Source: a virus | IMG/VR virus record: IMGVR_UViG_3300032117_000009 | Location: 32,001-96,000 of that record | Strand: one strand, 5' to 3' | Length of the DNA stretch: 64,000 bases | Shown here: piece after piece, positions 14,300 through 61,107 of the stretch | How the letters are laid out: every line of letters starts with the position of its first letter | Numbering within the stretch: position 1 is the stretch's first letter | Notes under the pieces: model-generated | The model's database searches: none | Told to the model about the DNA's origin: nothing | The model's input: the letters and a program-made list of their open reading frames with translations, nothing else | Program-made: the position numbers and the translations under genes

Positions 14300-15307
14300 C
14301 TAGGCCTTGACGATCTTACCAAGACCACGAGGGTTAAGAACGATCTCAGAAACAAGCTCGTCCATGACCCAACCCTTGTGGAATTTCTCAGGGGTGTGGT
14401 TCTCTTCAACGTCAAGGGAGTACATGACAGGGAAGACACCGAGGAACTCAGGAGCAGGGGTCAGATAGACCGTACCCTGAGGAACCTCAATTGAACGCTG
14501 AACCTGGAAACCACCGAACTGGATGATGCGCTCACCGGCAACAACACGGTCCTTGAAAGCCCAACCAGTCTGGTTAATGTCCCACTTGTAAAGGTCACGG
14601 TAGTCGATTGGGTTCATCAGAAGGCGAGCAGCCTCAAGCTGGTGAACTTCGATCAGACCAACGAGGTCATACAGCGAGTCAGGAGTTACATAACCTGAAA
14701 GCTCATTGACGATGTGGGTTGGTGAAACAACGTGGTTAGGGTCAACAGCGTAGTTATTGATAGCAGCTTCAAGAACTGTGATCAGGCGAGCATCCTCTTG
14801 TTGCATGATAGCCTGCTTCGACATGTCTTGGGCATACTCTACGATGTTAACACGCAAGTACCAGAGGTCTTCCTTCTTAATCTGAGGGAAGGTGGCGATA
14901 CGGAACAAACGGACTGGAACTTTCTTACCTTCGAATGGGGTAACACGAACTTCACCCTCATTACCAGACAGAACGTAAGCCTGACCGTACTCGTCCAGAA
15001 CGTCATAGACAACTGGAACACCAGGGGTCAGTGGGTCCTCAAGAAGGACGTTACGGGTCATACCCTGGTAACGAAGCTTCAGCTGGATAGGACCAATCAT
15101 ACCCTGGCCCAAACGGACCATATAGTTGTCCTTGTCAGCAAGGATCTGCGACAGACGACGTTGCTTCTCTTCACGAGTAGCAGTAACACGGCCTGTAGCC
15201 TCCTTCAGACGACTACGAGCCTCAACAATGTCATTTACATAAGTATCTGACTTGCGAGCTACTCTAGGGCCAATACCGCCCTGATTTGAAGTTAGTGATG
15301 TAGACAT
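14300..15307 (-). CDS. Major capsid protein (HK97 fold, Bxz1/cluster C-like)
   Basis: RLGQGMIGPIQLKLRYQG...RNVLLED...GQAYVL.GNEGEVRVTPFEGK...FRIATFPQIKKEDL closely matches my recollection of the cluster C mycobacteriophage capsid protein; strong SD; strong codon bias. Confidence 0.9.
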   Translation of the reverse strand: MSTSLTSNQGGIGPRVARKSDTYVNDIVEARSRLKEATGRVTATREEKQRRLSQILADKDNYMVRLGQGMIGPIQLKLRYQGMTRNVLLEDPLTPGVPVVYDVLDEYGQAYVLSGNEGEVRVTPFEGKKVPVRLFRIATFPQIKKEDLWYLRVNIVEYAQDMSKQAIMQQEDARLITVLEAAINNYAVDPNHVVSPTHIVNELSGYVTPDSLYDLVGLIEVHQLEAARLLMNPIDYRDLYKWDINQTGWAFKDRVVAGERIIQFGGFQVQRSIEVPQGTVYLTPAPEFLGVFPVMYSLDVEENHTPEKFHKGWVMDELVSEIVLNPRGLGKIVKA

Positions 15308-15899: not shown

Positions 15900-17522
15900 T
15901 TAAAGTGTGATGAGGTAATCGTCTTTTAATACATCTTGCTTCGAAACCGAAGCGGTTCTTGTGGTACGGCCCATCTCTGGAACACGGTTAGCCTTTGAGT
16001 TAGCAACTCGCATGGTTTGGCGTGTTTTTACCGCTCCGGTTCGCTCCATCGTGTCAAGAGTCATAATTACACCCTCAATCTTTGATGCAGACATTTTTTC
16101 ATACTGAGCAATGTGCTTAGCACGCTCATCTCTGTTAACCATGCCAAGTCGCTCAAGTCGATCTACAAGGTTAACGGCTTTCAGAAGGCCTTCACGATTA
16201 GAAGCAGTCTTTTCTCTTTCTACTTCTTCTTCTTCAGATTCCATCTCACGCTTTGATTCAGCATCAGACTTCTTCTTGTCATCCTTCTTATTATCCTTTT
16301 TCTTGTTCCTTTTAGCAACAGGCTGGTAAGGAGCAAAAGCTGGGTTTGTAGCATCACCAGGCCAAGGAGTCTTGTTCTCGCTTTGCTGCGGTACAAAACC
16401 AGTTGAAGCACCATCGTTGTAGTATGGTGGAACATCGGCAAGCTGAAGTTGGTTAGGCTGAAGGTTAGGTACAACTACATTGTCAATAAAATCAGGTGTC
16501 ATAACTTCTTGACGAGATTCTGTAACATCGTCAAGATCCTGCACTTGTGTTGGACGAGAAGTCTCTTGGTTACCATTAGTAGCCAGCTTGCCTTCTAATT
16601 GATCATGTACAGCCTTTAAATTGTCAATAACATTGGCAATCTTTACAGACTTGCCTTCCTTAAGGTGTTTGAAAATTATACCTAGTCTACGGTCAATAGC
16701 GTAAACTCGCTTGTCATTTTTAGCAGCAGACTTAATAGCATTGTGAGCAGCCCACATAGCCTTATCTACTTCCTCAACGCTACCTCGCTCAGCAAGACCC
16801 TTTGCAGCTTGACGAACAAATTTAGCAGCAGCACGCTCACCAATAGGTTGTTCCTCAGCATAAATATCAGGCTCAGCAACAACACGATTGTCACCAGGTC
16901 CACCCATAACATCCATAGCATCCAAATCTTGCACATTAATGTTGCGTGCAGGCATTACGTCCTTCCATTGTGAAGGCACTGGTGGTGGTGCCATTGATGA
17001 TAGACCTAATGGACCATCAAGGTACATGTTCGATACTTGATCGTACTGAACACCAGGTACCATAGCCTCTCTTTTACGAGGCCGTAGTTCTTTATCAAAC
17101 CGGCTCATATTAGCTCCTTGCCTTTGCTGTGTTACAGCATCTAGTTGTTGCATCCTTTGCAAATCTCTTAACTTAAGTAATTCTTGCTCAAGTTCATTAA
17201 TTCTTGTGCTAGGATCATTTTCCGCAGAACTTACATCAGATGCTTGATCTGCTTCTTGGTCTTCAACAGCTTGCTCTGGGTCTTCCTCTTCTTGTTGTTG
17301 TGGAGGCCCAGCACCTGCAGGCTGCGGTTCATATTGTGGATCACGACCTTTTTTATCAGTATCGGGATTTTGGAAATCTTCTGGTGGAGCTTCATAACCA
17401 CAAGAATCACAAAGCATTCCATCAAATTCGGAACCACATACAGGGCATTGAGATTCATCACGCATTGTGTCAACATCAGCTGGCAAACGCATGATCTCCT
17501 TTGATACCCTTAAATTAGGCAT
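15900..17522 (-). CDS. Capsid scaffolding protein with N-terminal Zn ribbon
   Basis: Lies between protease and capsid genes; CPVC...CDSC, long low-complexity and coiled-coil segments, helical C-terminus, KTAS/RTAS motifs. Confidence 0.7.
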   Translation of the reverse strand: MPNLRVSKEIMRLPADVDTMRDESQCPVCGSEFDGMLCDSCGYEAPPEDFQNPDTDKKGRDPQYEPQPAGAGPPQQQEEEDPEQAVEDQEADQASDVSSAENDPSTRINELEQELLKLRDLQRMQQLDAVTQQRQGANMSRFDKELRPRKREAMVPGVQYDQVSNMYLDGPLGLSSMAPPPVPSQWKDVMPARNINVQDLDAMDVMGGPGDNRVVAEPDIYAEEQPIGERAAAKFVRQAAKGLAERGSVEEVDKAMWAAHNAIKSAAKNDKRVYAIDRRLGIIFKHLKEGKSVKIANVIDNLKAVHDQLEGKLATNGNQETSRPTQVQDLDDVTESRQEVMTPDFIDNVVVPNLQPNQLQLADVPPYYNDGASTGFVPQQSENKTPWPGDATNPAFAPYQPVAKRNKKKDNKKDDKKKSDAESKREMESEEEEVEREKTASNREGLLKAVNLVDRLERLGMVNRDERAKHIAQYEKMSASKIEGVIMTLDTMERTGAVKTRQTMRVANSKANRVPEMGRTTRTASVSKQDVLKDDYLITL

Positions 17523-18174
17523 ATGGAACCATTTTCTTGTCTAGGAACCAGGCACTCTCATCTGCTGGGTCAAAAACACAGCTAAGTTCAAAGAAATTTG
17601 GATTGTGACAATTTTCCCAAACCAAAGCTTCTTTTCTGGAACCGTTCTTATAAATATCTAACCTCATGCCCTTCATATAAGGAAGGTGTTCGCAATAGTC
17701 ACGTTCGGTTTTAGCGTTATTGCCACATGCAGAACACGTAGTAGAGCCTACATCAGCACCCATGCTTACTCCAGGAATTTGACCACTCATAATTGCTTGG
17801 CCAAGTTTTGGAAAAGTATGAGAATCGATTTCCATCAAACAGTACACAGAACCATCTGTGTGCCCTGATGCAAGTCTTGTTTCTTTATAAAGAGCATCAA
17901 GCACAACTCCACGAGCCTCTTTTGGATCACTATTGTTGTGCTCTACAAAAACTGGACGACCTACAAAAGTTTTGTAAGCCTTTTTAAGTTCTCCTACTGG
18001 CCAGCCATCGTAATTAGCATTGACCCTAGAAGATATCGCCCTAGAAACTGCATAGAGATAGCCAGGACGCTCCTGGTAATCAAAATCCTTTAGTGTGATA
18101 GGATGAATTTTGACTTCCTCAGCTTTCTTGAGGAAGCCTCTACGTTCTAGAGTTGGTGCGCCGAATTTTATCAT
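17515..18174 (-). CDS. Prohead (maturation) protease, HK97/herpes assemblin fold, with Zn-finger insert
   Basis: Catalytic His in PVFVEHN, catalytic Ser in GVSMGA, C-terminal FFELSCVFDPA; CSAC...CEH insert. Confidence 0.85.
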   Translation of the reverse strand: MIKFGAPTLERRGFLKKAEEVKIHPITLKDFDYQERPGYLYAVSRAISSRVNANYDGWPVGELKKAYKTFVGRPVFVEHNNSDPKEARGVVLDALYKETRLASGHTDGSVYCLMEIDSHTFPKLGQAIMSGQIPGVSMGADVGSTTCSACGNNAKTERDYCEHLPYMKGMRLDIYKNGSRKEALVWENCHNPNFFELSCVFDPADESAWFLDKKMVPYA

Positions 18175-36433: not shown

Positions 36434-37777
36434 TTATTTCTTCCAATCGATTTTTATATAATCTCTACAATCTTCACACAGATTATACCAGTCTTTTATT
36501 GGGTTTTTGTTATTATTGAAATATTCTTTGTTCATTGTATCATAATATTGCAATGAGCTTTTGTCACTTGGATGGTTGTAAATTTCTAATGCTTTGTTGA
36601 TAGGCACAGTTGGCTTTTGCTCATCCTCGTGCTCTTTAAGCTGCTCATCATAATCATCAATGTTGTTATTGCAAATTCTACAACGGTGGCGACAATTTTC
36701 ACAATAATCACTTAAAGGATTGCCATACTTATCTTCATGTTCAGAAGCTTTTGCGTAGCTACCATTATCTATGTCTTTGATCTCTTCATCGCAATCTATG
36801 CAATTCTTTCGGTGGCTTTCGCAATACTTTGAATCAGTATAGTCCTGATCTGAAATAGCGTCACCACACGTTTCACAATCTTTTCTGTGGTATTCACAAA
36901 GATCTGGGCCATATGGAAGAGCATCTCTTTCATCTTCTGAAAGCTCATCATAACAATCATTACAACATCTTCTGTGCTCTTCACAATAATCATAATCTGG
37001 GTAATCTTCCTGGTCTTCAATAGAATGGCCACAATCTTGACAATATTTCCTATGATGTTGGCAATATACAGAATCTGGCCAATCCTCGTGGTCTTCAATA
37101 TCTTCATTGCAATCTTCGCACTTTGGACGACAATTTCTGCAAAGATCTGAATTGGTATCGTGCTGATCGTAAACTTCTTTTCCACAATTTTCACAAAGCT
37201 TACGGCAATTTTCACAATGATCAGACTCTGGGTAATCCTCTTGGTCTGCTATCTCATCTCCACATTCTTGACATTCTTTACGGCAATTTTCACAATATTT
37301 AGAATCAGTATCATTCTGATCTGTTATTTCTCTATCGCAATATTCGCAATGTTTACGACAATCTTCACAATATTTAGTACTTGGGTTTTCTTCAATATCA
37401 TGGATTGGTTCATCGCAATAATTGCAGTATTTACGGCAATTCTTGCATTGCTTAGTTTCTGCACCAACATAATATAAATGGCTATCTTCTTTGCCCACAT
37501 CATCTATTAAACCACGGCATTGATCGCAATAAAGCGTATGATCTGGACAACCTTCAGAACCTGGTATAGCATTTTCATTGCAGTACTTACACTTAGAAAT
37601 AACATTTTGTCTACAATCTCTACACATTCCGCTTGAATGGCCAAGATCTGATGTGCTTAATCTATCACCACAATTACTACATGATTCATGATCATTAATA
37701 ATTTTAGGATATGGGTGTTGCCAATTAGGTCTAGCTGTTTTGCTAAAAAATTCTTCTTGCGTCCAAAACTCTTCCAT
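36434..37777 (-). CDS. Tandem Zn-ribbon repeat protein (13 CxxC...Cxx[C/H] units)
   Basis: About 25-aa periodic units counted in the translation; SD AAGGA; begins SKTA, ends IDWKK. Confidence 0.8.
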   Translation of the reverse strand: MEEFWTQEEFFSKTARPNWQHPYPKIINDHESCSNCGDRLSTSDLGHSSGMCRDCRQNVISKCKYCNENAIPGSEGCPDHTLYCDQCRGLIDDVGKEDSHLYYVGAETKQCKNCRKYCNYCDEPIHDIEENPSTKYCEDCRKHCEYCDREITDQNDTDSKYCENCRKECQECGDEIADQEDYPESDHCENCRKLCENCGKEVYDQHDTNSDLCRNCRPKCEDCNEDIEDHEDWPDSVYCQHHRKYCQDCGHSIEDQEDYPDYDYCEEHRRCCNDCYDELSEDERDALPYGPDLCEYHRKDCETCGDAISDQDYTDSKYCESHRKNCIDCDEEIKDIDNGSYAKASEHEDKYGNPLSDYCENCRHRCRICNNNIDDYDEQLKEHEDEQKPTVPINKALEIYNHPSDKSSLQYYDTMNKEYFNNNKNPIKDWYNLCEDCRDYIKIDWKK

Positions 37778-44733: not shown

Positions 44734-46698
44734 TTATGATTCTAATTCATATTTTGAAGCTATAAATTTTAGGTATTGGGTAACTTGTTTTTTATTAGCA
44801 GTAATTGGTGGAAGGCCTAAGCTTGCTGCGCCTCTTCGATAATCATTTTTTCTTGACCCTGGCAAATCATCCCAAGCAGCTATTACATTTGCAAAAGCTT
44901 CTGGATCATCTTGGTCTTCATGGTTTGTTGTAAGAATATCATGCGTTTTTCTTAAAATATTTTCACTAGGCTTATTAACCCGCCTACCAGCATTTATATT
45001 ATCAACATCTTTTTTAAACTTTCCACCAACTATACAATAATCACATGGTGTATTATCATATTTTGTGTTTTTTCTATCCAAATGGTAAATCAAACCAGAT
45101 GCTCTACCATGTTGATAACCCCTAATATATTTTTTCCTTTGAGAACCTGGCTCATTTTCTAATTCAGATTGATTTTCTGGAGCTGTTGTTTCTTCATGTT
45201 CTTGGTCAGAATTAGGTACAATATTGAAATTATTATAAAAATTATAATTTTGCGGTGAGTTTACATCAACAACTTTTTGTGGCATTACTGTTACCTGATG
45301 ATATGGTAAAGATTTGATTAAACCATTTTCATCTTGTTCTACATTTTCAACGTATGGGTTTCTGTTTACAGGAACTTGTGGAGTATTCCCTGGTGTAGTT
45401 ATTACCCTAGTATTTTGATATCCATTATTAGATCTTTGTTGATTGTTTTTTGGCTCTGTTTCTTTGGAACCCCAAACATCACTGTAATTTGGCAATTTTG
45501 CATCAGGAGTTGATAAAGAGCCATGTAGTTTTTCTATTCTTGATAAGCTTCTTTCTAAATTATTTTTCCATGTTGGATTATCAAAGAAACTTATTCCTGC
45601 TTCGTTTGTTTGATTAACATCTACAACTTTATCTTTTTGCTTTGTTCCACTTGGGGCACCTTTATAAATAAATCTATGCACGCCTTGAACATTATTATAA
45701 CTCCAACCTCTTTTAACAGCATCTTTTACAGAGTTATAAAAACTTTGTTTAAAATCAGCTGCAATAACAACTTTTGGAATATTGCTATGGTTAGCATAAA
45801 ACATACTGTTGATCCAATTATTTTTATAAGCACGCACAACTATCTTTCCACAATGGTCACATGTGAAATCACCAGTGTCTCTGCTTAGGTGTGTTGGGCC
45901 ACCACAGATTGGGCATACAATTACTGAGCTTTGTTTCATTGATTTTTTCCAATCGATTGTACTATATGGGTTGTGATAAGCTGGGCACCGATAATCTGTG
46001 CATCTATTACTTGATGTTAATTCTCCAGTACAGCAGCTACATTTTTGAGAGTTTCTACATTTTTCATTTTGACAATTACCAAATTCATCTACAACGTAAT
46101 TTCCACAATTGTCACATCTATTTGTTTCAGTGCAACGTGGGCATAATGTGTACTGTTCACGCTCAGATAAACAATTTGGGCAATGTTCTTTTTGACAATC
46201 TGGGCAAAGATCTAAATTATCACCGTATGCGTATTCTTTCTTAAGCCAACCTTCTGGCTCTTCATCATAACCTGGTGAATAGCTCGCATAGCAATCTACA
46301 CCATCACAATAAGTTTCATATGTGCGGTAAGCTTTCTTTGGTCTGAAATGAGGGCTTTCTTCGCATTTTGGGTTGCTGCATTCATCATACTGGTCCATGT
46401 ACTCACCACATTTGTCACATTTATAACAATTTCTGCAATCTTCATTGACACAGCAACCACTATCCAAAGGCTCAGCACATTCTCTACAATAGTCCTCTTG
46501 GCAATGTGGGCAAAGGTGATAATTGTCATCCCAGATAGGAGATTTAGATCTTCCTGTTCCTGGGCCATTCATTGAGTTTGTATAACTTTCCGACCAACCT
46601 TGGTATCCTGCGTCATCGTCATAAGCAAATTCATCGCAACCAGGGCCATCGCAATGCAATGTATATATGTCACGAGATAAACGTTTCATTATGACCAC
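44734..46698 (-). CDS. Modular Cys-rich protein (putative cargo polyprotein)
   Basis: Two multi-Zn modules separated by PKKAY, then IDWKKSMKQSS, a Zn ribbon and an Asn/Gln-rich region. Confidence 0.65.
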   Translation of the reverse strand: MVIMKRLSRDIYTLHCDGPGCDEFAYDDDAGYQGWSESYTNSMNGPGTGRSKSPIWDDNYHLCPHCQEDYCRECAEPLDSGCCVNEDCRNCYKCDKCGEYMDQYDECSNPKCEESPHFRPKKAYRTYETYCDGVDCYASYSPGYDEEPEGWLKKEYAYGDNLDLCPDCQKEHCPNCLSEREQYTLCPRCTETNRCDNCGNYVVDEFGNCQNEKCRNSQKCSCCTGELTSSNRCTDYRCPAYHNPYSTIDWKKSMKQSSVIVCPICGGPTHLSRDTGDFTCDHCGKIVVRAYKNNWINSMFYANHSNIPKVVIAADFKQSFYNSVKDAVKRGWSYNNVQGVHRFIYKGAPSGTKQKDKVVDVNQTNEAGISFFDNPTWKNNLERSLSRIEKLHGSLSTPDAKLPNYSDVWGSKETEPKNNQQRSNNGYQNTRVITTPGNTPQVPVNRNPYVENVEQDENGLIKSLPYHQVTVMPQKVVDVNSPQNYNFYNNFNIVPNSDQEHEETTAPENQSELENEPGSQRKKYIRGYQHGRASGLIYHLDRKNTKYDNTPCDYCIVGGKFKKDVDNINAGRRVNKPSENILRKTHDILTTNHEDQDDPEAFANVIAAWDDLPGSRKNDYRRGAASLGLPPITANKKQVTQYLKFIASKYELES

Positions 46699-48302
46699 AA
46701 ACCTTTGTGTGGGTTTATAAAATTACGGCACCGTCTATTATTGCATTTTCCATGAGTTAATAATTGTTCGCAAGAACCACAGTTCTCTCTAGGTATATTT
46801 ACTAATGTACAGTACCCTCCATCGTTTTGGCAAACGCCTTTTTTATTTTTTTCGCCACATTCTGGACATGTATAATATGAATCACATGCCTCATTATTGC
46901 ATCTTCCATAATCATCTTCTGATACTTTGCACTCTGGGCAAATTTGATTAAAATGCTCTTTGCAATAGTGTCTTTCGTTGCCTAGCCAATCATATGCATA
47001 TTTCATTGGTTCATAAACAACTGGATTATCTGGGTATTTTGTTTCTGTGCATCCTGGGTAATCGCAATGTTGAATTGTGAGAGGCTCATCAGGATAATTT
47101 GGATCATCTTCATACGTGTAATGAGCTTTTTTATCAAAACCCCAATTGATATCATCATATGCATTTGGTTTGCATGATTTACATCTACCGCTAGGTGCTA
47201 ATAAACCACCACAACCAGGGTAAATTCTATTATACCCATATGAAGGTTCTATTGTTTCTGTGCAATGAAGCGGTTTGTGTTCTTTGCAATAGTGATAGCG
47301 TTCTCTTTCCCAATCAGACCCACCGCCGTAATAATTATTATAATCATCGTAGTTAACATCAGCTTTTTTGTCGCAACCTTCATGGTCGCATTGAGGAACT
47401 ACATAAGCTATACATTCTGGGTTATAACATTCATGGTGGTCATTATTTCTAGAATTGGTATCACATTGCCTGCAATATTTGCCTCTTTCGCAATAACCAT
47501 CTGAATACTTTTTATCGCCTGATGCATCATAATTTTTTTCATCTAAGCAGTTGCCAAATTTATCAACTTCGCTTCCACAAAAACATTTATTATGCATATA
47601 ACAACTGGGATTATGGCAAACTTGAGAGTCATTGTCGATAAATTCTTGTTTTAGTTCATCATCACGATATGGCTCTTCACATTCATGGCACACAAAATGA
47701 TCCCAGCAATTTTTACAATAATCGGTGGAAGATTCGTCATGTCTGTGATGTTCTCTACGATGCCAACCTTCAGGCATTCGATCATATTTTGGGTTCCAAC
47801 CATCAGCTTCACAATTTGGTGAGCCATCACACGTTACCCAATAATTTTTTGTGGAAATTTTAAGATTTTCTATAGCTCTTGTAGATTCTCCCAAAGAATT
47901 ATATTTAGAACATTCTTTATTTTCACAATAAGCTTTTCCACTATTACTTTGATAATATGGTTCGCCACATTCTCTACAATTGTCATGGTATTCACAATTC
48001 TTATTATCGCATCTTCCACTATCTTCTAAAACTCCATGAAAACATTCCATACAGTTTGTCTTTTGGCAATCTGGGCAGATGTGAAAATCATAAGCATCAT
48101 GATTGTTTCGATGCTCTGGGAAATCAGATGCATCTTTCCAATCAGACTTCCACATATCATCTTCTGAAACTTCTTCTTCATTGCACTCTGGTCCATGAAC
48201 ATCACAAGTATAGCCAATATATGTTGATGCGTACCTAGGCTTATCTAAGCTATCGACAATGAGATTAGGTTGTTCAAAATTTTGTATTTTTTTACGCATC
48301 AA
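46689..48302 (-). CDS. Modular Cys-rich protein (putative cargo polyprotein)
   Basis: Four CD-x2/4-C...W/Y...[HY]C modules; separators RYAS, KIST and INWGFDKKAH. Confidence 0.65.
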   Translation of the reverse strand: MMRKKIQNFEQPNLIVDSLDKPRYASTYIGYTCDVHGPECNEEEVSEDDMWKSDWKDASDFPEHRNNHDAYDFHICPDCQKTNCMECFHGVLEDSGRCDNKNCEYHDNCRECGEPYYQSNSGKAYCENKECSKYNSLGESTRAIENLKISTKNYWVTCDGSPNCEADGWNPKYDRMPEGWHRREHHRHDESSTDYCKNCWDHFVCHECEEPYRDDELKQEFIDNDSQVCHNPSCYMHNKCFCGSEVDKFGNCLDEKNYDASGDKKYSDGYCERGKYCRQCDTNSRNNDHHECYNPECIAYVVPQCDHEGCDKKADVNYDDYNNYYGGGSDWERERYHYCKEHKPLHCTETIEPSYGYNRIYPGCGGLLAPSGRCKSCKPNAYDDINWGFDKKAHYTYEDDPNYPDEPLTIQHCDYPGCTETKYPDNPVVYEPMKYAYDWLGNERHYCKEHFNQICPECKVSEDDYGRCNNEACDSYYTCPECGEKNKKGVCQNDGGYCTLVNIPRENCGSCEQLLTHGKCNNRRCRNFINPHKGLWS

Positions 48303-51300
48303 AATCCCCAGGCGTCATTATATTTTTTCTTATGCTCTTGGTCATCACCTTCGCAGTACTTACATTGATTGTAAAGAGTATCTAATTTAGGCGACCAACA
48401 ATTATGACAAATTTCATCTTTCCAACACTCTGGGCAATAAATTAAACCGTAGCCAAATTTCCAGCCTTTTTTAGCTGCATTTTTTTCGTCACCGTCTACG
48501 CCACCAACATCTAAGCACTCATCGCACCTAAAACGATAATTATCATCATCCCACATAGCTTGTCTTACTGAAGAGTTTTTATCAAAACCCCAAGCTTTAT
48601 TGTAATCCTGCTTTTTTTCTTCTTTTGTTAAAGGTTCGCAATTTAAACAACGGCCTTTATCTTTATCCAATTTAGAACCACAACCATCTTCTGCATATCC
48701 ATAGCAATCATTATATTCTTTATTGTTGAATTTAGCGTATAATCTTTGCTGATATTGGTCAGTGCAATAAAGATTTTTGTGCAATGGGCATACATGAGAT
48801 AATGAGTCTGGGTCACCATTTTGATAATGAACTGTTTCCCAACCAATTGGATGATCCATGTCATAGTCAAGGCCATCTTCATGTTCATTGCAGCCAGGGT
48901 GATCACAGTCAGCTCCGTATGTCATGGTAGCTTTCTTGTCAAATCCCCAAGCCTTATTGTAATTATGTGTAACAAAATCGCAATGTGGGCATATAGTAGA
49001 TGAATTTTCTATCTTCCAACCGCATTTATTACATCTATTAATATCAGTGTGCTTTGGGCAGACAAATTGCTGGTTTTGTATTGTCCAACCATTTTCAATA
49101 GCTTTTTGAACTGGCCTTTCTCTTAAACCAATTTGGAAACTATTATGGCAAATTTCATCATCACCAGTTTTGTGGTTTCCACACTGAATCGATCTATTGG
49201 TTAGATCAGCATTAGATTTTTTTCCAAAACCCCATGCGCTATTATAAAATTTTTTGTCAGATCCTTCACATAATGTGCATTGGCCGAATTTCCCGAGCTT
49301 TTGTCCACAACCGAACGTCATATTTAATGGGTCGTTAATGTTCTCATCTAAGTGTCTTCCTTTTTTGCAAGTTGGGCAAAAATGAAGTTCTTCAGAATCA
49401 TCATAATCTAATCCTGGCGTTTTATCTTTAAAACCATTTAAACTAGCTCTACCCCATTTAGAATTAATATATTGGTCAAAATTAGGATCATGCTCTCCAC
49501 ATCTATCACAAAAAATAACTCTTTCAAATGAAGCTTTTTTGTCAAAACCCCATGCATCGTTATATACTTCTGGCTGTTTGATTGAACATTCATTGCAATA
49601 ATGTGATCCATTACCTGGGTCATATCCCTCATATCTGGGGATCTCTGAATAGCAACTATCACAGAATATTTTTATAAATGCTTCTTTTGAGGCAGCAGAA
49701 GATAAGCCACGCTCATAGTCTTGCATGCTTGGCGCATCTGTTGCCATTCCATCTTTTCCAGGATCTGGGTTCGGAGTAGAGCCAAAGCCTAAACCATCTG
49801 TGTCGCCAGTATCTTGTGCCATTCCTGGCATGATAGCTTCATTGGGTTGGTCTAATGAGAAGTAATTGATAGCTTTCTTCAAACCCCATGCGTTGTCATA
49901 ATTTTTCTTTATGTTTTCGTCTAAACCATCACATACTAGGCATTGACCATATTTGCCTTTTAAATTTGTGCAATTAGGGCAACGTTCTTTTGCATGTTCT
50001 GGGCAATAATCAGAATCTTGTTTACCTAAAAACCAATTTTCAAGCGCATCTTCATCATCATGATAAACTATGTTCTTGCAGCCTTCTTCATCGCAGTGAT
50101 GGAACGTAGAAGCTTTTTTATCAAATCCCCAGGCATCTTTGTAATCTTTTTGATATTCTTCGTTAGATCCATCACAAGTTTCACACTGACCGTACTTTCC
50201 CTCTTTCCATGATTTACATCTAGGGCAGAATGTAGTATCTCCTGCACATGGAGGACATATGTAACAATCATGTTTATCATCCCAATGCATATTAGGGCCT
50301 GGGTGAGTATCTTCACAGTGTCCACATGTATCTTCACCAAGAATATATTCAGAACAATTATCACAATAAAGTGAATCATGGTAACCATGTACATCCCAAG
50401 GATAAATAGGCTGTAGGGTAGTTCCGTATTCATCTACTAGCTTATCGTGTTCAATGTCTTTTCCTGGAAAGCTTTTTTGTATACAGCTTGGACATTTCAC
50501 TCCACCGTCACTAAGAAAACAAAGAAGATCTGGATTATGGCTAGAAGCTTTTTTATCAAAGCCCCAGGCATTAAAATAAGCTTTTGAGTCCTTGCCATCA
50601 CAATCTAAGCATTGTCCAAATATGCCTGCATTTTTTTTATTAAGTTTTTTCCCACAGCCAGTTTTTAATAAATTTCTTCCTTCTTCATCCCATTGGTCTA
50701 TGCAATAAAGTTGAGCATGTTCTGGGCAAAAATCAGCTATATCTTTTTCTCCACCAGCTGTTTGCCCAGCTGTTTGCCAATTCTTATCTATTGCATCTTC
50801 AAGATCTACAATTTTATTGCATAATGGGTGATCGCAATCAATCTCTCCGGTTGAATGCATGCTAGAGTCTTTATTAAATCCCCAAGCGTCTTTGTAATCT
50901 TTTTTAACTTCTTTTTTAATTTGATCGTAACAATCTTTACAGTAAACACAATCCCCATATTTATTCATATTTTTTATATGGTGATCATAGCAACATTTGT
51001 CACATACAAAAGAATTTTCTGAAGCTTTTTTATCAAAACCCCATGCATTTTTATAATTTTCTTCTGTATCTTCTTCTGTTGCCTCGCAATCATCGCAAAG
51101 GCTATACTTATTTAAAAGCTCACCACATCCATGACCAATTTCATCTCTATCTACACAATGTAGTTTTTTGTGCTCTGGGCAGAAATCATAATCTTGTTCT
51201 CCCGATAGCCAATCTCCTAATGTTTCATAGTCATCATGGTAAACAATATTATTGCACCCTTCTTCATCACAATGAAAAAATGTAGATGCTTTTTTATTAA

Positions 51301-52048
51301 ATCCCCAGGCATCGGCATATTCTTTTACCAAGCCATCTTCCGTTTGATTTGAGCACCAAGTGCATTTACCATATGGTCCTAATAACGAACCACAACCGTT
51401 TTTTGTTGTAGTAAGGTGATGATTTGCATCATCTACGCAATGCAGATCTTTATGTTCTGGGCAGAAATGTTCTGTTGCAAAATCGTTGTGCTTAAAGTTT
51501 GATCCTGAGACATTAGCTACGCCCCAATTACCCTGAGCACCATATCCTGATAGTATGCCTGATCGATCAACAACTATTTCATTCTGACAATAACCATTGT
51601 CTCCATAATGATTACATCTTACTCTTGGAATAAACGAAGCTTTTTTATTAAATCCCCAGGAATCGGCATATTCTTTTTCTATTTCTTCTTCTGTTGCTTC
51701 GCAATTGTCGCATTTACCATAATTGTTTAATACCTCACCACATCCATGACCAACTTCATCATTGTCTACACAATGAAGTTTCTTGTGCTTTGGGCAGAAA
51801 TGTTGATCAGAAGCTGTAGCGTTGCCCCATTTATTTTCTTCTAGGGCATAATATTGACGTATTCTTCCTCTATTATCAATGCTTTCATTTTCATTGGGGC
51901 AATAAGTTATTCTGCCACCATCTTCATCCACATGATCACAGATAGCCTTGGTTACAAGCGATGCTTCTTTAGGAGCGATATCATCACAGGAATCATACAT
52001 GGCAATCACAACCGCATGGTGGGCATGAACAATTACCGCCCTTGTCAA
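48299..52048 (-). CDS. 12-module Zn-finger polyprotein with WGF-x-KKAS linkers; probable start 52000
   Basis: 12 W-G-[F/L] motifs at in-frame spacings of 53-145 aa; ATGTATGA overlap at 51993-52000. Confidence 0.8.
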   Translation of the reverse strand: MTRAVIVHAHHAVVIAMYDSCDDIAPKEASLVTKAICDHVDEDGGRITYCPNENESIDNRGRIRQYYALEENKWGNATASDQHFCPKHKKLHCVDNDEVGHGCGEVLNNYGKCDNCEATEEEIEKEYADSWGFNKKASFIPRVRCNHYGDNGYCQNEIVVDRSGILSGYGAQGNWGVANVSGSNFKHNDFATEHFCPEHKDLHCVDDANHHLTTTKNGCGSLLGPYGKCTWCSNQTEDGLVKEYADAWGFNKKASTFFHCDEEGCNNIVYHDDYETLGDWLSGEQDYDFCPEHKKLHCVDRDEIGHGCGELLNKYSLCDDCEATEEDTEENYKNAWGFDKKASENSFVCDKCCYDHHIKNMNKYGDCVYCKDCYDQIKKEVKKDYKDAWGFNKDSSMHSTGEIDCDHPLCNKIVDLEDAIDKNWQTAGQTAGGEKDIADFCPEHAQLYCIDQWDEEGRNLLKTGCGKKLNKKNAGIFGQCLDCDGKDSKAYFNAWGFDKKASSHNPDLLCFLSDGGVKCPSCIQKSFPGKDIEHDKLVDEYGTTLQPIYPWDVHGYHDSLYCDNCSEYILGEDTCGHCEDTHPGPNMHWDDKHDCYICPPCAGDTTFCPRCKSWKEGKYGQCETCDGSNEEYQKDYKDAWGFDKKASTFHHCDEEGCKNIVYHDDEDALENWFLGKQDSDYCPEHAKERCPNCTNLKGKYGQCLVCDGLDENIKKNYDNAWGLKKAINYFSLDQPNEAIMPGMAQDTGDTDGLGFGSTPNPDPGKDGMATDAPSMQDYERGLSSAASKEAFIKIFCDSCYSEIPRYEGYDPGNGSHYCNECSIKQPEVYNDAWGFDKKASFERVIFCDRCGEHDPNFDQYINSKWGRASLNGFKDKTPGLDYDDSEELHFCPTCKKGRHLDENINDPLNMTFGCGQKLGKFGQCTLCEGSDKKFYNSAWGFGKKSNADLTNRSIQCGNHKTGDDEICHNSFQIGLRERPVQKAIENGWTIQNQQFVCPKHTDINRCNKCGWKIENSSTICPHCDFVTHNYNKAWGFDKKATMTYGADCDHPGCNEHEDGLDYDMDHPIGWETVHYQNGDPDSLSHVCPLHKNLYCTDQYQQRLYAKFNNKEYNDCYGYAEDGCGSKLDKDKGRCLNCEPLTKEEKKQDYNKAWGFDKNSSVRQAMWDDDNYRFRCDECLDVGGVDGDEKNAAKKGWKFGYGLIYCPECWKDEICHNCWSPKLDTLYNQCKYCEGDDQEHKKKYNDAWGF

Positions 52049-52753: not shown

Positions 52754-53581
52754 CTATTTTGGGGAATTCCCCCTAAAGTTATTTGGGTAATTAGGGGCGC
52801 TTTTAGGCATTTCATAATGAGTTTGCGAATTAACATCTTGTGGATGTGGTGGTGATGAAACAAGGTTTGGCTCATTATAAAGAAGTCCTTGCTTATAACC
52901 CTGATAGTAATCCATGGAGAGATTAGCCATTCCCTCATCCATTTCTTTACCAGATGTAGCATCGGAATAACCTTTATAAAATACATCGGAGTCAGAAGCT
53001 ATTTTATTCATTGTCTTATAATAGTCTTCTGCTGTCCATTTAGATGCAGTAGAAGTAGGCATTTGTGCTGTTTGTGGCATATTAGCTGTTTCTGGCATGT
53101 CTACGTTTGAAACAGCGGAAGCGCCTTCTTGAACATCTGGAGAAGACATTTCTGGGCTAGGCATTACATCTGCTATTACCCACGAAGAAGCAGATACAAG
53201 AATGCCCTCAGGGTTTTCTTCAGTATCGCTCATCACTGTGCCAGCAATGGGTCCAAGGTCCATGTACATTTCATCATTAGCTGTATCATTTACAGCAAAT
53301 CGGTTATGGTTACCTTGCTCAGAAATCTTTTTGTGCGTATCCCAACAGCAACCACAACCAACTTCCATTGGGCAAACGTGGTCATCATGGAAGTTATCTT
53401 CGGCATCACGACAAGTTACACAAGTATTATCCAGCAATGGATGTGAACTATATGCACAACTCATGCTTGGGTAATTAGTTGGGTCACCACAATGCTGACA
53501 GATAGGACCATCTCCTAAGCTAGCATATGCTTTAAAACTGTCTTGGCCCTCTAGCTCAGACCAGCGTGGCGGTAATGTCAT
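52754..53581 (-). CDS. Modular Cys-rich/acidic protein
   Basis: SD GGAGAA; separators NRFAV, STASKWTAE and NKIAS. Confidence 0.55.
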   Translation of the reverse strand: MTLPPRWSELEGQDSFKAYASLGDGPICQHCGDPTNYPSMSCAYSSHPLLDNTCVTCRDAEDNFHDDHVCPMEVGCGCCWDTHKKISEQGNHNRFAVNDTANDEMYMDLGPIAGTVMSDTEENPEGILVSASSWVIADVMPSPEMSSPDVQEGASAVSNVDMPETANMPQTAQMPTSTASKWTAEDYYKTMNKIASDSDVFYKGYSDATSGKEMDEGMANLSMDYYQGYKQGLLYNEPNLVSSPPHPQDVNSQTHYEMPKSAPNYPNNFRGNSPK

Positions 53582-55641: not shown

Positions 55642-56514
55642 TTAATACCGGCCCTTATTCTTCTTAGAATTCTTATACAGCTCTTCCCAAATGTCAGGGT
55701 TTTCCTCTGACTTTTTGTAATTCTGTATAATACTATTCATATCTAGCTTGTCAGCATAGTTTAACAGAGAATTCTGTGATTCTGAAGAATTATTGTGGCC
55801 TTCAAATATTTTTGTACGTGAGAAAGAAGGACGAATTCTGCTCTTCATTTGTTTAGATGGGTGGAATACGATACTGTAAGCCTTTTCACCTGGCTTTAAA
55901 CCAAAAGGAACTTGTTGCTGTTGCTTTTGTTGCTCTTGTTGCTGTTCTTGCTCTTGTTGCTTTTCTTGCTCTTGTTGCTCTTGTTGCTCTTGCTCTTCTG
56001 GCTCTTGTTCTGGATCTTGTTCTTGCTCTTCACGCTCTTTTGGCTGTTCTTTGCCAGGAAGAAAGTCATAAACAATATCGCTAGGGTCTTTTGCATTATC
56101 AGCTGGACGCTTAATGAATGCACCAGGACCGTGTACGTTAGTACACTCTTCCTTCCACAGGTCTAAAGCTTCATTAGCGTCTGTTGTGGTACTATACTTC
56201 TTTGTGGCTGAGAGTTGAGTGATATGTGAATTTGTATTTGGCTCAATGATGTGCCAACCAGTGATAATGTGGTATGGAGGCATAGTTGAGAAATTAGTTT
56301 TTACGTTGCCATCATGCTGGTCATAACCAGGAACGTGCATTTGACGAATATTCAAACCCTCATTGTTCTCAATGTCTGGGTGACCATCTACTACGTGGAA
56401 GTGTGGGGTTTCCTTTTTCCCATAACAAGAGAAGAAAGGACCTCTCCCACTACTTGCTGGTGCATAAGGCTGTTCATCGCCATCATCAGATGCATATACG
56501 TAATGTAAACTCAT
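55642..56514 (-). CDS. His-rich domain protein with poly-Gln/Glu insert
   Basis: Same domain as 54731..55639 plus an EQ-rich tract. Confidence 0.6.
   Translation of the reverse strand: MSLHYVYASDDGDEQPYAPASSGRGPFFSCYGKKETPHFHVVDGHPDIENNEGLNIRQMHVPGYDQHDGNVKTNFSTMPPYHIITGWHIIEPNTNSHITQLSATKKYSTTTDANEALDLWKEECTNVHGPGAFIKRPADNAKDPSDIVYDFLPGKEQPKEREEQEQDPEQEPEEQEQQEQQEQEKQQEQEQQQEQQKQQQQVPFGLKPGEKAYSIVFHPSKQMKSRIRPSFSRTKIFEGHNNSSESQNSLLNYADKLDMNSIIQNYKKSEENPDIWEELYKNSKKNKGRY
55912..56050 (-). repeat. Imperfect short tandem repeat (cttgttgct-like) encoding a Gln/Glu tract
   Basis: Visible DNA periodicity; translates EQQEQQEQEKQQEQEQQQ. Confidence 0.85.
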
Positions 56515-57011
56515 TGATCATACCATTCTTTTTGAGCTTTTTTAATATTTTTCCATTGAACATCATGAAGTCGGTGGCGAACTTCACCATTTCTTATGTC
56601 TTTTTTAATTTTTTTGATTTTCCACCATTTTAACATCTGATGATGTTTGTTGTCTGGGTCGTCAGGATCTACTGATCTTCCCTTATCTGATAAATCTACG
56701 AGCTTTTCTTTTGAAATAACGTAAATATATCCGTGATAACCGACTTCTTGGAACTTGCCTTTGAACAATCCAGCAGGAAGTTTGCGCCCAGTTTCTTCTT
56801 CCCACTCTCTCACTGCTGCTTGGAACGGGTCTTCACCCTTTTTTACATGCCCACCAGGAAATTCCCATACTCCTGGGCTGTTCAATGGAAGCTCAGAGTG
56901 TGACCTTCTCTTAAGCAATAGAACATTACCAGTGTCCTCTGCTTTTACACAGAGTCCAGCTAGAACATCAGTATCATCAGGTGCTTTGAGTGCGTATCTC
57001 ATATCAATCAA
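56511..57011 (-). CDS. NUDIX hydrolase
   Basis: Nudix box GGHVKKGEDPFQAAVREWEEETG preceded by WEFP. Confidence 0.92.
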   Translation of the reverse strand: MIDMRYALKAPDDTDVLAGLCVKAEDTGNVLLLKRRSHSELPLNSPGVWEFPGGHVKKGEDPFQAAVREWEEETGRKLPAGLFKGKFQEVGYHGYIYVISKEKLVDLSDKGRSVDPDDPDNKHHQMLKWWKIKKIKKDIRNGEVRHRLHDVQWKNIKKAQKEWYDQ

Positions 57012-57378: not shown

Positions 57379-58151
57379 TATATTCTTCCCTTAGTCTCAT
57401 GCCATGGACCCCAATGACCATGATGCTGGATAAGATTTCTTAGCTCTTCCTGCCCATAACGCTTTTCCACAACTGGATTGAAGAAAGCTTCAAATATTTC
57501 TCTTGGAAACGTTTCATCAGTAGTTGGCTCATGAATAGTTCCATCTGAATGTTCTACCCAACCGTGAGCTAATGGTGGGCTTCCCATACCTTGGATAGTG
57601 CCATGAACTAATACTGCTCCTGGGTCACCACCAAATATTGCTCTTCTACCAGAAAGCTGGAAACATCGCCCCATTCTTCCTTCCATCGTTGAATCATCTT
57701 CGTAATTTTCATCATCTTTATCTTCATCCCAATCTTTTGAAGCGCCGTGAAGATTGAACTCAAGCTGATCTGGGTTAGGGCATTCTCCACAGTAACATTT
57801 GTCTGGGTAATTGCATACTTTATCTATGCCTGGGTCTTTAAGAGGCATTATTTTTTGTATTGTCATTTTACTTAAAGGAGCTAGGCCTTTAGGTGGCGAC
57901 CAATATTTATTGTTTGTTTCGTCATACTCACCTTCATACCAATTATCAAAACAATTATGACATGTAAATTGAGGTTCTTGCCTATTTAAATCACCATAAG
58001 CATCTTTATATGCTTTCATACACGCTTCGTCATCTACAAAAATATTTTTCCATTGATACCCATGTGGTTCTATTTGTTCAACATTATCAAAACCACAGTC
58101 TGGGCATGTAAGAATAGCACTTTTTTCTTTAGGATAGCGCATCATAATCAA
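57378..58151 (-). CDS. Zn ribbon + transglutaminase/papain-like (Cys-His-Glu) domain
   Basis: GRCFQLS...LVHGTI...AHGWVEHSDGTIHEPT after the HGAS separator. Confidence 0.55.
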   Translation of the reverse strand: MIMMRYPKEKSAILTCPDCGFDNVEQIEPHGYQWKNIFVDDEACMKAYKDAYGDLNRQEPQFTCHNCFDNWYEGEYDETNNKYWSPPKGLAPLSKMTIQKIMPLKDPGIDKVCNYPDKCYCGECPNPDQLEFNLHGASKDWDEDKDDENYEDDSTMEGRMGRCFQLSGRRAIFGGDPGAVLVHGTIQGMGSPPLAHGWVEHSDGTIHEPTTDETFPREIFEAFFNPVVEKRYGQEELRNLIQHHGHWGPWHETKGRI

Positions 58152-59326
58152 TAAAACTCTCTCGAAGAAGATTTCCAGTCAATTTCACTGTATGGGTTGT
58201 ACCCAGGAGCGCACTTGTACATATTGGCTTTTGTATTGAGCAAAGTCTTATTTACGTCTTCTACACTAAAATCATCTTTGGTAAGTGCAAGGTTTGTAAT
58301 GTCATTAGCAAAATGGTATGCTTCATGATCGTTTAAATCGTATTTGCCTGAGTAATCTTCGTAATGATTAGCAATTCCACTAGCTACGTATCGTGCATCT
58401 TTATCATGAGCTTTTAAAACGTCATCATGAGTAACAACAGGCCCTCTAGCATATGCATAGTCACCTACATTAATTCCTTTATCATGGGCATCTAAAATTT
58501 CATTTTTATTAAGATTAGAATTTTTGGCATATGCATAATCACTTAAATCAATACCTTTATTATGAGCTTCTAAAAGTTCATTATGATTAATATCAGAGTC
58601 TCTAGCATGTACATAATCATATAAATTAACACCATTATAATGAGCTGCTAAAATTTCTGCGTTACTAGGCTTAGTATATATTGGGGTTTCTTCCAAAGGA
58701 TTGTTCTCCGAGTTTGGTATTACTTTTTCAGAAGCTTCAAAATACCATGGTGTGTTTATTTTTACATTATCTATCAAAGAACTATAATTACCTTCTACAA
58801 ATTGATCATCAGATATTTGACGTAGGTGTGGGCAATGTATTCTTACTAAACGCATGCATTCTTTATGATATGGCAATGTATCGCTTCCAAACTCACCAGA
58901 TCCAGCTGATCCATAATAGTCTTCTTTATCTGGTTGCCAAGCTACTGCTTTATCATTGTCTTCAAATCTATCACCGCACATAGGGCAACATCTTTTATCT
59001 ATGGATTGCATAACTGAATTATCTAGTTCGTCTTTGGCAAAATTTGGTATATCTTGTGCATCAACTCTTGTGCTATTCCATGGCATTGGAATTCTTTTAA
59101 ATAATTTGCGGTCACCTATCTCATAACCCATTCCTTCATTTTTGGGTGTTAAGCGATCATATATTTGATTTTTTTCACGAGTCTTCACGTAAGGCCTTGG
59201 CAAGCCTATTACTTCTGGACCTTTTGGACTAAATTCTTGTGCTTTAGCTGCAATATGCAACATGTGACTAGGACCACTACAAAATAAGCAATCTGAGTAT
59301 GTAGCTGATTCATGGTACCATGCCAT
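58148..59326 (-). CDS. Modular protein: HCPHL domain + ~26-aa helical repeats
   Basis: N-terminal paralog of 44090..44728; repeats E[IL]L.AH..G[IV].[LV].DY..A[RK]. Confidence 0.6.
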   Translation of the reverse strand: MAWYHESATYSDCLFCSGPSHMLHIAAKAQEFSPKGPEVIGLPRPYVKTREKNQIYDRLTPKNEGMGYEIGDRKLFKRIPMPWNSTRVDAQDIPNFAKDELDNSVMQSIDKRCCPMCGDRFEDNDKAVAWQPDKEDYYGSAGSGEFGSDTLPYHKECMRLVRIHCPHLRQISDDQFVEGNYSSLIDNVKINTPWYFEASEKVIPNSENNPLEETPIYTKPSNAEILAAHYNGVNLYDYVHARDSDINHNELLEAHNKGIDLSDYAYAKNSNLNKNEILDAHDKGINVGDYAYARGPVVTHDDVLKAHDKDARYVASGIANHYEDYSGKYDLNDHEAYHFANDITNLALTKDDFSVEDVNKTLLNTKANMYKCAPGYNPYSEIDWKSSSREFY

Positions 59327-60372: not shown

Positions 60373-61107
60373 CTAGCCCTTAAGCTTTTGTATGTCAGCT
60401 TGAAGGTCGGATAGACGGAAATTGCGTAGCTTTCCAGCCTCTACAGCCTCAGGAGTGATTATTGCCCATGTCTCTTCGAGGTAGCACTGAAACCACTGCT
60501 TTGTTACAGCTTGGATCTCTCCCCAGGTTACAACATAAAAGTACTTTTCATCATAACCAACGATGATGACACAGTGGCCACCTTCAATCTGCTGGTCAGC
60601 TGGAGTACCAGTAAGTGCCCATGGCTTGCCCTCTTGGAACTGCTGCATGCAAGGGGCAGGGACAAGAATACCGATGTAACAGAAGCCAAAGGCATTGACT
60701 ACTGACTTGATCTCATCGAAGTCCTTGTGGTCAGTAGGAGCGTAAGCAGCGATCTTTGATCCAAATAGACCCTCTGATTCCCAATGGGCGAGAAGATCAG
60801 CTTCAATAGCACCTTGGTCGGCACCATTGGTATACTGGAGGTAAGCGTTAACTACGTCTTGGTCGTTAAGAAGCTTTTCTTTAACGCCATCGAGCTGAGC
60901 TACCGCCATCTTAGCGTGGTAAGCTCCAGCGAATGTGCAGTCGCCATACTTATCATTACCAAGCATGTACCAATCTGGTACAGCAGGAGCACCAAGAGTG
61001 GCAGGGGCTTTTGGAAGAGGATTTTCCTGGTAATAAGCTAACATGTGTAGACCATCTGGCCTAACAGCTGGCTTACGACCTAAACGACCTGCAATACGCT
61101 CTGACAT
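60373..61107 (-). CDS. Papain-like cysteine peptidase (C1-like)
   Basis: MLGNDKYGDCTFAG (catalytic Cys); GGHCVIIVGYD...VVTWG (catalytic His). Confidence 0.8.
   Translation of the reverse strand: MSERIAGRLGRKPAVRPDGLHMLAYYQENPLPKAPATLGAPAVPDWYMLGNDKYGDCTFAGAYHAKMAVAQLDGVKEKLLNDQDVVNAYLQYTNGADQGAIEADLLAHWESEGLFGSKIAAYAPTDHKDFDEIKSVVNAFGFCYIGILVPAPCMQQFQEGKPWALTGTPADQQIEGGHCVIIVGYDEKYFYVVTWGEIQAVTKQWFQCYLEETWAIITPEAVEAGKLRNFRLSDLQADIQKLKG

Follow-up and report, generated by a model that had tools for sequence, protein, structure and literature searches.

Is a protein made of twelve different small modules, joined by a uniform linker, used whole, or is it a precursor that is cut into its parts? 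This question is raised by a gene on the minus strand (48299-52000) of a 64,000-nucleotide stretch of viral DNA, here called the window, which comprises bases 32001-96000 of the complete virus genome IMGVR_UViG_3300032117_000009 (124,688 bp, direct terminal repeats). The stretch is present in lake-water metagenomes (DNA sequencing runs). The gene product, termed the concatemer, may be a polyprotein that is cut in trans by the head maturation serine protease of the same phage at [KR]-x-A sites into about 12 acidic zinc mini-proteins, which would be carried in the capsid. On the sequence patterns described below, we give this reading a probability of roughly 0.45.

Architecture of the concatemer

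The reading frame is open over 48299..52048 on the minus strand, and the ATG at 52000-51998 is its likely start; a database copy of the protein (P0003) also has 1,233 amino acids (aa). The predicted product has a mass of 140 kDa and a pI of 4.9, and contains 90 Cys and 54 His. An overlap of 8 nt joins the start of the gene to the stop of the upstream gene, and its TGA in turn overlaps the start codon of the next gene, which suggests translational coupling of all three genes.

48299..52000, minus strand: concatemer gene, 1,233 aa plus stop; ATG 52000-51998, TGA 48301-48299
46689..48299, minus strand: next gene, about 536 aa, 9% Cys; zinc-module paralogue with one internal linker (Trp codon 47142-47144)

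Every module closes with Y-x2-[AS]-W-G-[FL]. A regular expression for WG[FL] with Tyr at position -4 was found exactly 12 times in the translation, giving 12 modules of 53-145 aa, while an additional WGV at 51524, within a module, does not belong to a linker. The initial annotation of this DNA had described a concatemer of about 1,230 aa with 12 modules, and its count, the coordinates of the linker Trp codons (51656, 51305, 51041, 50882, 50564, 50129, 49886, 49550, 49232, 48947, 48590 and 48308) and the spacings of 53-145 aa were all correct. The same holds for a thirteenth copy, INWGFDKKAH, which it had placed in the next gene. The leader and the modules are as follows.

51962..52000, minus strand: leader, 13 aa, ends in P-K-E-A and is followed by S; candidate propeptide or targeting leader
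51638..51961, minus strand: module 1, to aa 121; canonical two-zinc type; ends in YADSWGFNKKA
51287..51637, minus strand: module 2, aa 122-238; canonical type
51023..51286, minus strand: module 3, aa 239-326; canonical type; AlphaFold2 model
50864..51022, minus strand: module 4, aa 327-379; mini-module of 53 aa with 6 Cys; orthologues in 6 relatives
50546..50863, minus strand: module 5, aa 380-485; canonical type
50111..50545, minus strand: module 6, aa 486-630; 145 aa, 14 Cys
49871..50110, minus strand: module 7, aa 631-710; ends in AWGLKKA
49532..49870, minus strand: module 8, aa 711-823; Cys-free hallmark segment, then a 4-Cys mini-module
49706-49870, minus strand: hallmark segment of module 8; INYFSLDQPNEAIMPGMAQ, a Pro/Gly-rich spacer, then MQDYERGLSSAAS
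49214..49531, minus strand: module 9, aa 824-929; best-conserved zinc module
48929..49213, minus strand: module 10, aa 930-1024
48572..48928, minus strand: module 11, aa 1025-1143; canonical type
48302..48571, minus strand: module 12, aa 1144-1233; AWGF directly 5' of the stop; core MWDDDNY after R-Q-A

The modules have masses of 6-17 kDa, are mostly acidic and contain 4-14 Cys each, with putative Cys/His zinc sites in eleven of them. A zinc profile was built from five modules of the type C-D-H..C / W / F-C-P-E-H / G-C-G / C..C; it matched eight modules over their full length (module 10 weakly) and three in their C-terminal part. That nearly all modules bind zinc, as proposed initially, is a reasonable reading of these Cys/His patterns, with the reservation that module 8 opens with a Cys-free segment. 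Module 3 is a chimera, with an N-terminal half resembling module 7 and a C-terminal half resembling module 1.

The Cys-free hallmark segment is the most conserved part of the family and is invariant at both ends. It is present in a single copy in each family protein and in the genome, and in two relatives (P0018 and P0019) it heads non-concatemer proteins, where it directly follows a short leader ending in K-E-A or K-T-A. It could be an anchor or a packaging signal.

Conservation of the linker

Eleven of the 12 tails are followed by [DNGK]-K-[KDN]-[AS], and the twelfth, in agreement with the initial annotation, stands directly before the stop. By chance, about 0.1 WG[FL] would be expected in a protein of this size; the longer pattern AW.[FL].KK occurs seven times in the concatemer, compared to 0.02 expected in the rest of the proteome. 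With 12 and 7 occurrences against such small expectations, chance is excluded.

Between the linker copies, 39% of the codons for identical residues differ synonymously, as had been noticed initially, and the longest exact DNA repeat within the gene is 22 nt and spans two linkers. Since the codons differ while the peptide is kept, selection acts on the protein and the copies do not reflect recent duplication. This bears on the idea that the linker is a recombination joint for module swapping without any role in the protein. Module order and content do vary between close relatives, and the 22-nt repeat lies where such a joint would be sought, but the DNA is not conserved and the peptide is kept across relatives that are only about 30% identical, which again indicates selection on the peptide; we regard a pure recombination joint as highly improbable.

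Among about 65 genuine internal linkers from 16 family proteins, [KR]-x-A is found in 50 and [KRQ]-x-[STG] in 15. The residue preceding the Ala (P2) is Lys in 42 of the 50, and the one following it is Ser (23), Ile (7), Thr (5), Tyr, Leu, His, Gly or Met. The spacing from Trp to Lys ranges from 1 to 7 residues, and in some relatives F-[LM]-P, W-A-P, W-K or W-T takes the place of WGF with K-x-A retained. As WGF is replaceable and the spacing variable while K-x-A is kept, K-x-A is the invariant element of the linker. The same element is found at the beginning of the proteins: 12 of 18 family members have an N-terminal leader of 7-24 aa ending in [KR]-x-A, often M-T-D-P-W-E-E-L-x2-K-Q-A followed by T, and the 13-aa leader of the window protein ends in K-E-A|S. 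It also precedes recognisable cores. MWD[DE]DNY follows R-Q-A in the window protein and K-K-A in relatives, and SFE[KR]VIFCD follows KKA, KRA, KKS or VQA. At the other end, eight of the 18 proteins terminate at the Trp tail, two of them with ...WGFNA or ...WDFNA, like a cut product. K-x-A thus appears wherever something must be parted from a module and is absent at the true C-terminus, which is the distribution that a cleavage site would predict. The initial annotation had taken KKAS for a possible processing site. This was too narrow, as Ser is not required, while the notion of a processing site gains from the invariance of [KR]-x-A, the leaders and the ends at Trp tails, and further from the enrichment in head proteins and the shuffling of modules as units described below.

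Tandem zinc modules with a conserved linker are usual in zinc-finger arrays that are never cut. The concatemer might likewise stay whole, as a flexible beads-on-string multi-zinc-finger protein that binds host or phage molecules polyvalently and in which the linker is structural (helix cap, spacing) or a repeated docking motif. Such a linker is hard to reconcile with modules whose sizes (53-145 aa), types and order vary, so that it cannot depend on a specific neighbour; with the presence of K-x-A on the N-terminal leader, where no module precedes; with family proteins that end at WGF without KKA; and with the better conservation of K-x-A than of the aromatic part. We consider an uncut array the chief alternative, possible but doubtful.

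Two other sequence signals were tried and rejected. By eye, a Glu-type motif as in T4 and phiKZ is not conserved in the linkers. A C-terminal Trp as a signal of the whole block was too weak, being found in 15 of 37 block proteins compared to 10 of 45 in the tail block, 1 of 13 in the head genes and 10 of 45 beyond 60.4 kb.

Relatives and module shuffling

Searches of the concatemer against Pfam, PHROG and NCBIfam (at permissive E-values) and PDB sequences gave no match, nor did tblastn against 50,697 phage records, and the best score in the protein atlas (0.76) was under the lead threshold. An exhaustive search of 1.84 billion representative proteins yielded only 16 relatives; a scan of viral contigs yielded none with a single protein as query and one with an alignment. 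The relatives have the architecture in common, with different module order and content and with orthologous modules still recognisable, and BLAST segments between them start and stop at linkers. The comparison of modules among relatives, which the initial annotation had suggested, therefore revealed shuffling of both order and content. Gene order around the concatemer is kept in six metagenomic loci.

Contigs from four lake-water runs were identical to the window, and no module-level variants were seen among them. A loose contig end at 51023 is an artefact, as the contig belongs to the linker copy of the next gene.

A second phage, represented by a partly recovered genome, was compared with the window phage protein by protein. 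The identities were:

Capsid protein: 97%
Protease: 93%
Portal (intein-bearing): 90%
Scaffold: 78%
Next gene (zinc-module paralogue): 36%
Concatemer: about 32%, with a different module set

A capsid protein identity of 97% next to a reshuffled concatemer of about 32% identity means that the locus is hypervariable inside an almost constant head. This marks the concatemer as a probable fast-evolving host-interaction locus and makes it a good place to seek new anti-defence proteins.

Predicted structures of the modules

Two AlphaFold2 runs were performed. In the first one, module 3 with its flanks was modelled from 21 aligned modules, resulting in a mean predicted local distance difference test score (pLDDT) of 70 and a predicted template modelling score (pTM) of 0.48. 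The core consists of small hairpins, the acidic stretch ending in Y..AW is helical and G-F-N-K-K-A-S-T is coil. In the second run, modules 8-9 were modelled from 15 sequences. Here the hallmark segment is disordered save one short helix, and the core of module 9 is confident (pLDDT 79-92) while its tail and linker are below 50. The pTM was low in both models (0.38-0.48), as expected of beads on a string. Within the limited confidence of these models, the modules resemble small independent domains with two zinc ions each, flexibly connected, rather than a continuous repeat fold. Packing of WGF into such a fold had been named initially as the outcome that would speak against separable modules. 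Flexibility is predicted for the linker and, in one of the models, also for the WGF tail, which argues weakly against such packing. The module 3 model also lends something to the uncut array, as Tyr and Trp of the tail lie four residues apart on the predicted helix, as for a packing face; the core of module 9, on the other hand, is predicted confidently without its tail.

Foldseek searches with the module 3 and module 9 models returned nothing at E <= 0.001 (best rows: E about 1, probability 0.28). The best fold rows were PHD, ZZ and RING-like fingers with a VIA Z of <=2.8 or a Foldseek probability of <=0.28, none of which is significant; the top VIA-align row was the Pygo PHD finger (Z 2.8, rmsd (root-mean-square deviation) 3.4 over 55 residues).

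The head maturation protease and its candidate motif

The candidate processing enzyme is encoded among the head genes:

14300-15307: capsid protein, PHROG match
15194..15205, minus strand: K-E-A-T, residues 35-38 of the major capsid protein; candidate maturation site
15900-17522: candidate scaffold, between the protease and capsid genes; without a clear match, read from position and composition
17515-18174, minus strand: head maturation serine protease, 219 aa; candidate processing enzyme
17518..17556, minus strand: C-terminal tail of the protease, SAWFLDKKMVPYA
18879-22400, minus strand: portal, phrog_2833 (8.8e-153), interrupted by an intein

The protease matches the head-maturation-protease family phrog_18299 (4.5e-27), its gene is located between the portal and the scaffold/capsid genes, and His79 and Ser137 are invariant across 28 sequences. 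More than 100 close homologues are found in a large group of uncultured freshwater phages, and further relatives in Bacillus phage G and in jumbo phages, where the homologue is annotated as head maturation protease. A search of the protease profile against PDB sequences gave nothing. The nearest named relatives of the head genes are those of cluster C mycobacteriophages and of Rhodococcus and Gordonia phages.

The C-terminal tail of the protease holds the only AW.[FL].KK in the genome outside the concatemer (0.02 expected). In nearly all 28 homologues this tail (residues 206-219) reads E-S-A-W-[LF]-L-x-K-K; its likeness to the module tails is a post hoc observation. Near the N-terminus, residues 12-18 of the protease read R-G-F-L-K-K-A|E, in the closest relatives only. 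This may be an autoprocessing site, as the C-terminal tail may be a targeting signal.

To put the motif in the context of the genome, [KR]-x-A-[ST] was counted and judged against 300 per-protein shuffles:

Head genes: 17 observed, 3.8 expected; reached in 0 of 300 shuffles
Following block: 12 observed, 3.7 expected; reached in 0 of 300 shuffles
Tail genes: 11 observed, 9.6 expected
Replication region: 5 observed, 7.0 expected

The motif is thus 3-4 fold enriched in the head genes and in the following block, and not in the tail genes or the replication region. Many sites are close to the end of a protein, either 15-55 residues from the N-terminus or near the C-terminus; examples are position 35 of the capsid protein, 55 and 1067/1072 of the portal and 438 and 522 of the scaffold. 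Most of the sites are found at the same positions in the second phage. In the N-arm of the capsid protein, L-K-x-A is conserved in the closest clade, though not in more distant capsids. The enrichment in head proteins is not something that an uncut array would lead one to expect.

It bears equally on the possibility that the polyprotein is cut outside the capsid by another protease, either a host enzyme or the conserved 244-aa protein encoded at 60373-61107 (minus strand), and that the modules act unpackaged in the producing cell. The concatemer is indeed located among non-structural genes, and the 244-aa protein is 85% identical in a relative and has a weak Peptidase_C39_2 match (E 0.007, 17.4 bits). 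This match is under the curated cut-off of 24 bits, however, and an NCBIfam search of the protein gave nothing, so that the label of peptidase which it carried in the initial annotation is unproven. Moreover, C39 peptidases cut after Gly-Gly, which is absent from the linkers, and another protease would explain neither the motif enrichment in capsid, portal and scaffold proteins nor the match of the module tails to the tail of the head protease itself. We judge this explanation improbable. The 244-aa protein belongs to phrog_19005 (3.4e-27), a family annotated as of unknown function.

Some side observations concern the head genes. The intein of the portal contains a homing endonuclease of the LAGLIDADG type (Pfam Intein_splicing, LAGLIDADG_3). 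Very large proteins are reported to include the protease homologue in cluster C mycobacteriophages; the profile of phrog_2774 has a length of 1,263. Myrna gp97 is annotated as 'tape measure' although it is located between the portal and capsid genes (gp96-gp97), and this annotation looks doubtful.

Proposed processing of the concatemer

Under cleavage by the head protease, the precursor would consist of twelve independently folding modules joined by a two-part linker. The first part, Y-x3-W-G-[FL], would be the C-terminal tail of each module, and the second part, [KR]-x-A, would be where the head maturation serine protease of the phage (17515-18174) cleaves. Cleavage is predicted after the linker Ala, and the same site would close the short N-terminal leader. 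After entering the prohead, the precursor would be cut there, and the resulting mini-proteins, about 12 and all different, would be delivered together with the DNA; the rapid shuffling of modules suggests that the mini-proteins would meet variable host targets. That one gene yields about a dozen different zinc modules, as the initial annotation had put forward, is partly supported, with several independent sequence patterns in its favour.

For the SPN3US protease, a role of the C-terminal segment in targeting the enzyme into the prohead has been suggested (PMC7411985); the module tails might analogously act as targeting signals. A more elaborate version of the mechanism, which we offer tentatively and hold to be rather unlikely in its entirety, is that module tails imitating the protease tail bring the polyprotein into the prohead, that an Ala-specific assemblin-type protease cuts it there at [KR]-x-A, that the hallmark segment serves as common anchor or signal, and that the zinc mini-proteins are injected along with the DNA against host defences.

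Cutting at the linkers would allow compact encoding and co-delivery of many small proteins in equal amounts, as units that are easily swapped. If true, cleavage by the head protease would widen the concept of protease-processed head cargo, so far a single protein with its propeptide, to a polyprotein library, and a large group of uncultured freshwater phages would gain a newly defined cleavage specificity, basic-x-Ala. Foreign proteins could perhaps be directed into capsids with the uniform linker and tail as a tag.

Several points weigh against cleavage by the head protease and packaging. Uncut zinc-finger arrays such as C2H2 proteins also have conserved linkers (TGEKP), and conservation alone is therefore no proof of cleavage. 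The [KR]-x-A motif is short, and compositional or structural effects could account for some of its enrichment. When an extended linker matrix trained on the relatives was run over the proteome, the only strong extra match was the known thirteenth copy, next to seven weak matches (2.4 expected); as no strong site was found in head proteins, the whole WGF-KKA linker is private to the concatemer family. In mycobacteriophage Myrna, with a capsid protein identity of 63%, the capsid site has not been kept, and a comparison of the Myrna capsid and protease-region proteins revealed no clear conservation of sites. Both AlphaFold2 models are of modest confidence, and no RNA runs are among the listed sequencing runs containing the stretch. 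The concatemer shares its strand and a long gene array with the head genes, is located about 26 kb upstream of the portal and is surrounded by genes of mixed type. The block includes a NUDIX hydrolase and an HNH endonuclease (PHROG matches), and by eye a gene with a YDIET motif suggests a DnaQ-like exonuclease; none of these is expected in virions. Finally, among related jumbo-phage proteases, those studied so far cleave after Glu instead of Ala (PMC10052503).

Comparison with known systems

The closest parallels are the head cargo proteins of T4 (IPI-III, Alt) and of phiKZ/SPN3US-like phages, which have short N-terminal leaders ending in the protease motif, as do the family proteins with the candidate motif (PMC7411985, PMC10052503). 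The T4 and SPN3US head proteases remove propeptides of 10-254 aa, with some cargo proteins being cleaved at multiple sites (PMC7411985, PMC10052503), and their motif is common to capsid, portal, scaffold and cargo. The putative targeting role of the protease C-terminal segment is a further likeness, and the window protease is a homologue of jumbo-phage head maturation proteases. In contrast, the genes of those phages encode one mature protein and a discarded propeptide, while here a chain of a dozen different modules is proposed to be retained, and their motifs end in Glu (L/I-x-E, A-x-E) instead of the candidate [KR]-x-A.

Polyvalent proteins of phages and conjugative elements (Iyer, Burroughs, Anand, de Souza, Aravind 2017, PMC5512222) have 2-15 domains per polypeptide with extensive shuffling, and their proposed delivery with the DNA and proteolytic release would answer varied host defences. 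Their domains are enzymes and anti-restriction domains, often with an embedded zincin-like peptidase; the Pfam, PHROG and NCBIfam searches detected neither these effector domains nor such a peptidase in the concatemer. In favour of an uncut array, polyvalent phage proteins can also work unprocessed, as does the N4 virion RNA polymerase (PMC5512222). Unlike polyvalent proteins, the concatemer consists of small, mostly zinc-binding modules with uniform linkers, and its protease would act in trans.

Herpesvirus assemblin cuts at maturation and release sites with the consensus (V/L)-x-A|S. The candidate site resembles it in P1 Ala and in P1', which is most often Ser, and differs in P3, which is basic instead of aliphatic; as the substrates share no sequence homology, this is a resemblance only. 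Phage head proteases have an assemblin-type Ser/His mechanism (PMC7411985).

With C2H2 arrays the concatemer shares repeated zinc modules and a conserved short linker. Its modules, however, are 53-145 aa long, of several types, with two zinc sites each and without a significant fold match, and its linker also closes the N-terminal leader. Multi-core precursors (cyanobactin PatE-like, fungal Kex2-processed repeats) similarly derive several products from one gene and have recognition repeats that are more conserved than the cores. Their cores are 6-20 residues long and are modified by dedicated tailoring enzymes, in contrast to the predicted folded zinc domains and the phage late-gene context found here.

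Other genes of the block

The next gene encodes a 24-aa N-terminal leader ending in P-R-Y-A|S. Leaders and Trp junctions were also seen in further genes of the block, and the N-terminus of the protein encoded at 52754-53581 hints at a leader type that is shared in the block. A second type of Trp junction, N-P-Y-S-x-I-D-W-K-[KS]-S, occurs in two block genes (44734-46698 and 58148-59326). These and other genes of the block are:

35018-35806, minus strand: 262 aa with the motif L-L-Y-D-I-E-T-A-P-N; looks like a DnaQ or PolB-type exonuclease; 82-84% identical in relatives and among the most conserved genes of the block
36434-37777, minus strand: 447 aa, 10.7% Cys; about nine tandem C-x2-C-R-K-x-C-x2-C units with acidic spacers; C-terminus I-D-W-K-K; without family match
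44734-46698, minus strand: 654 aa with the second Trp junction type; zinc ribbon C-P-I-C-G-G-P-T-H ... C-G-K-I-V-V-R-A, common to P0018 and P0019
52754-53581, minus strand: N-terminus M-T-L-P-P-R-W-S-E-L-E ... K-A-Y-A-S, resembling the leader of the concatemer family and conserved in relatives
56511-57011, minus strand: NUDIX hydrolase, phrog_1198 (8.4e-15); 79% identical in a relative
58148-59326, minus strand: gene with the second Trp junction type

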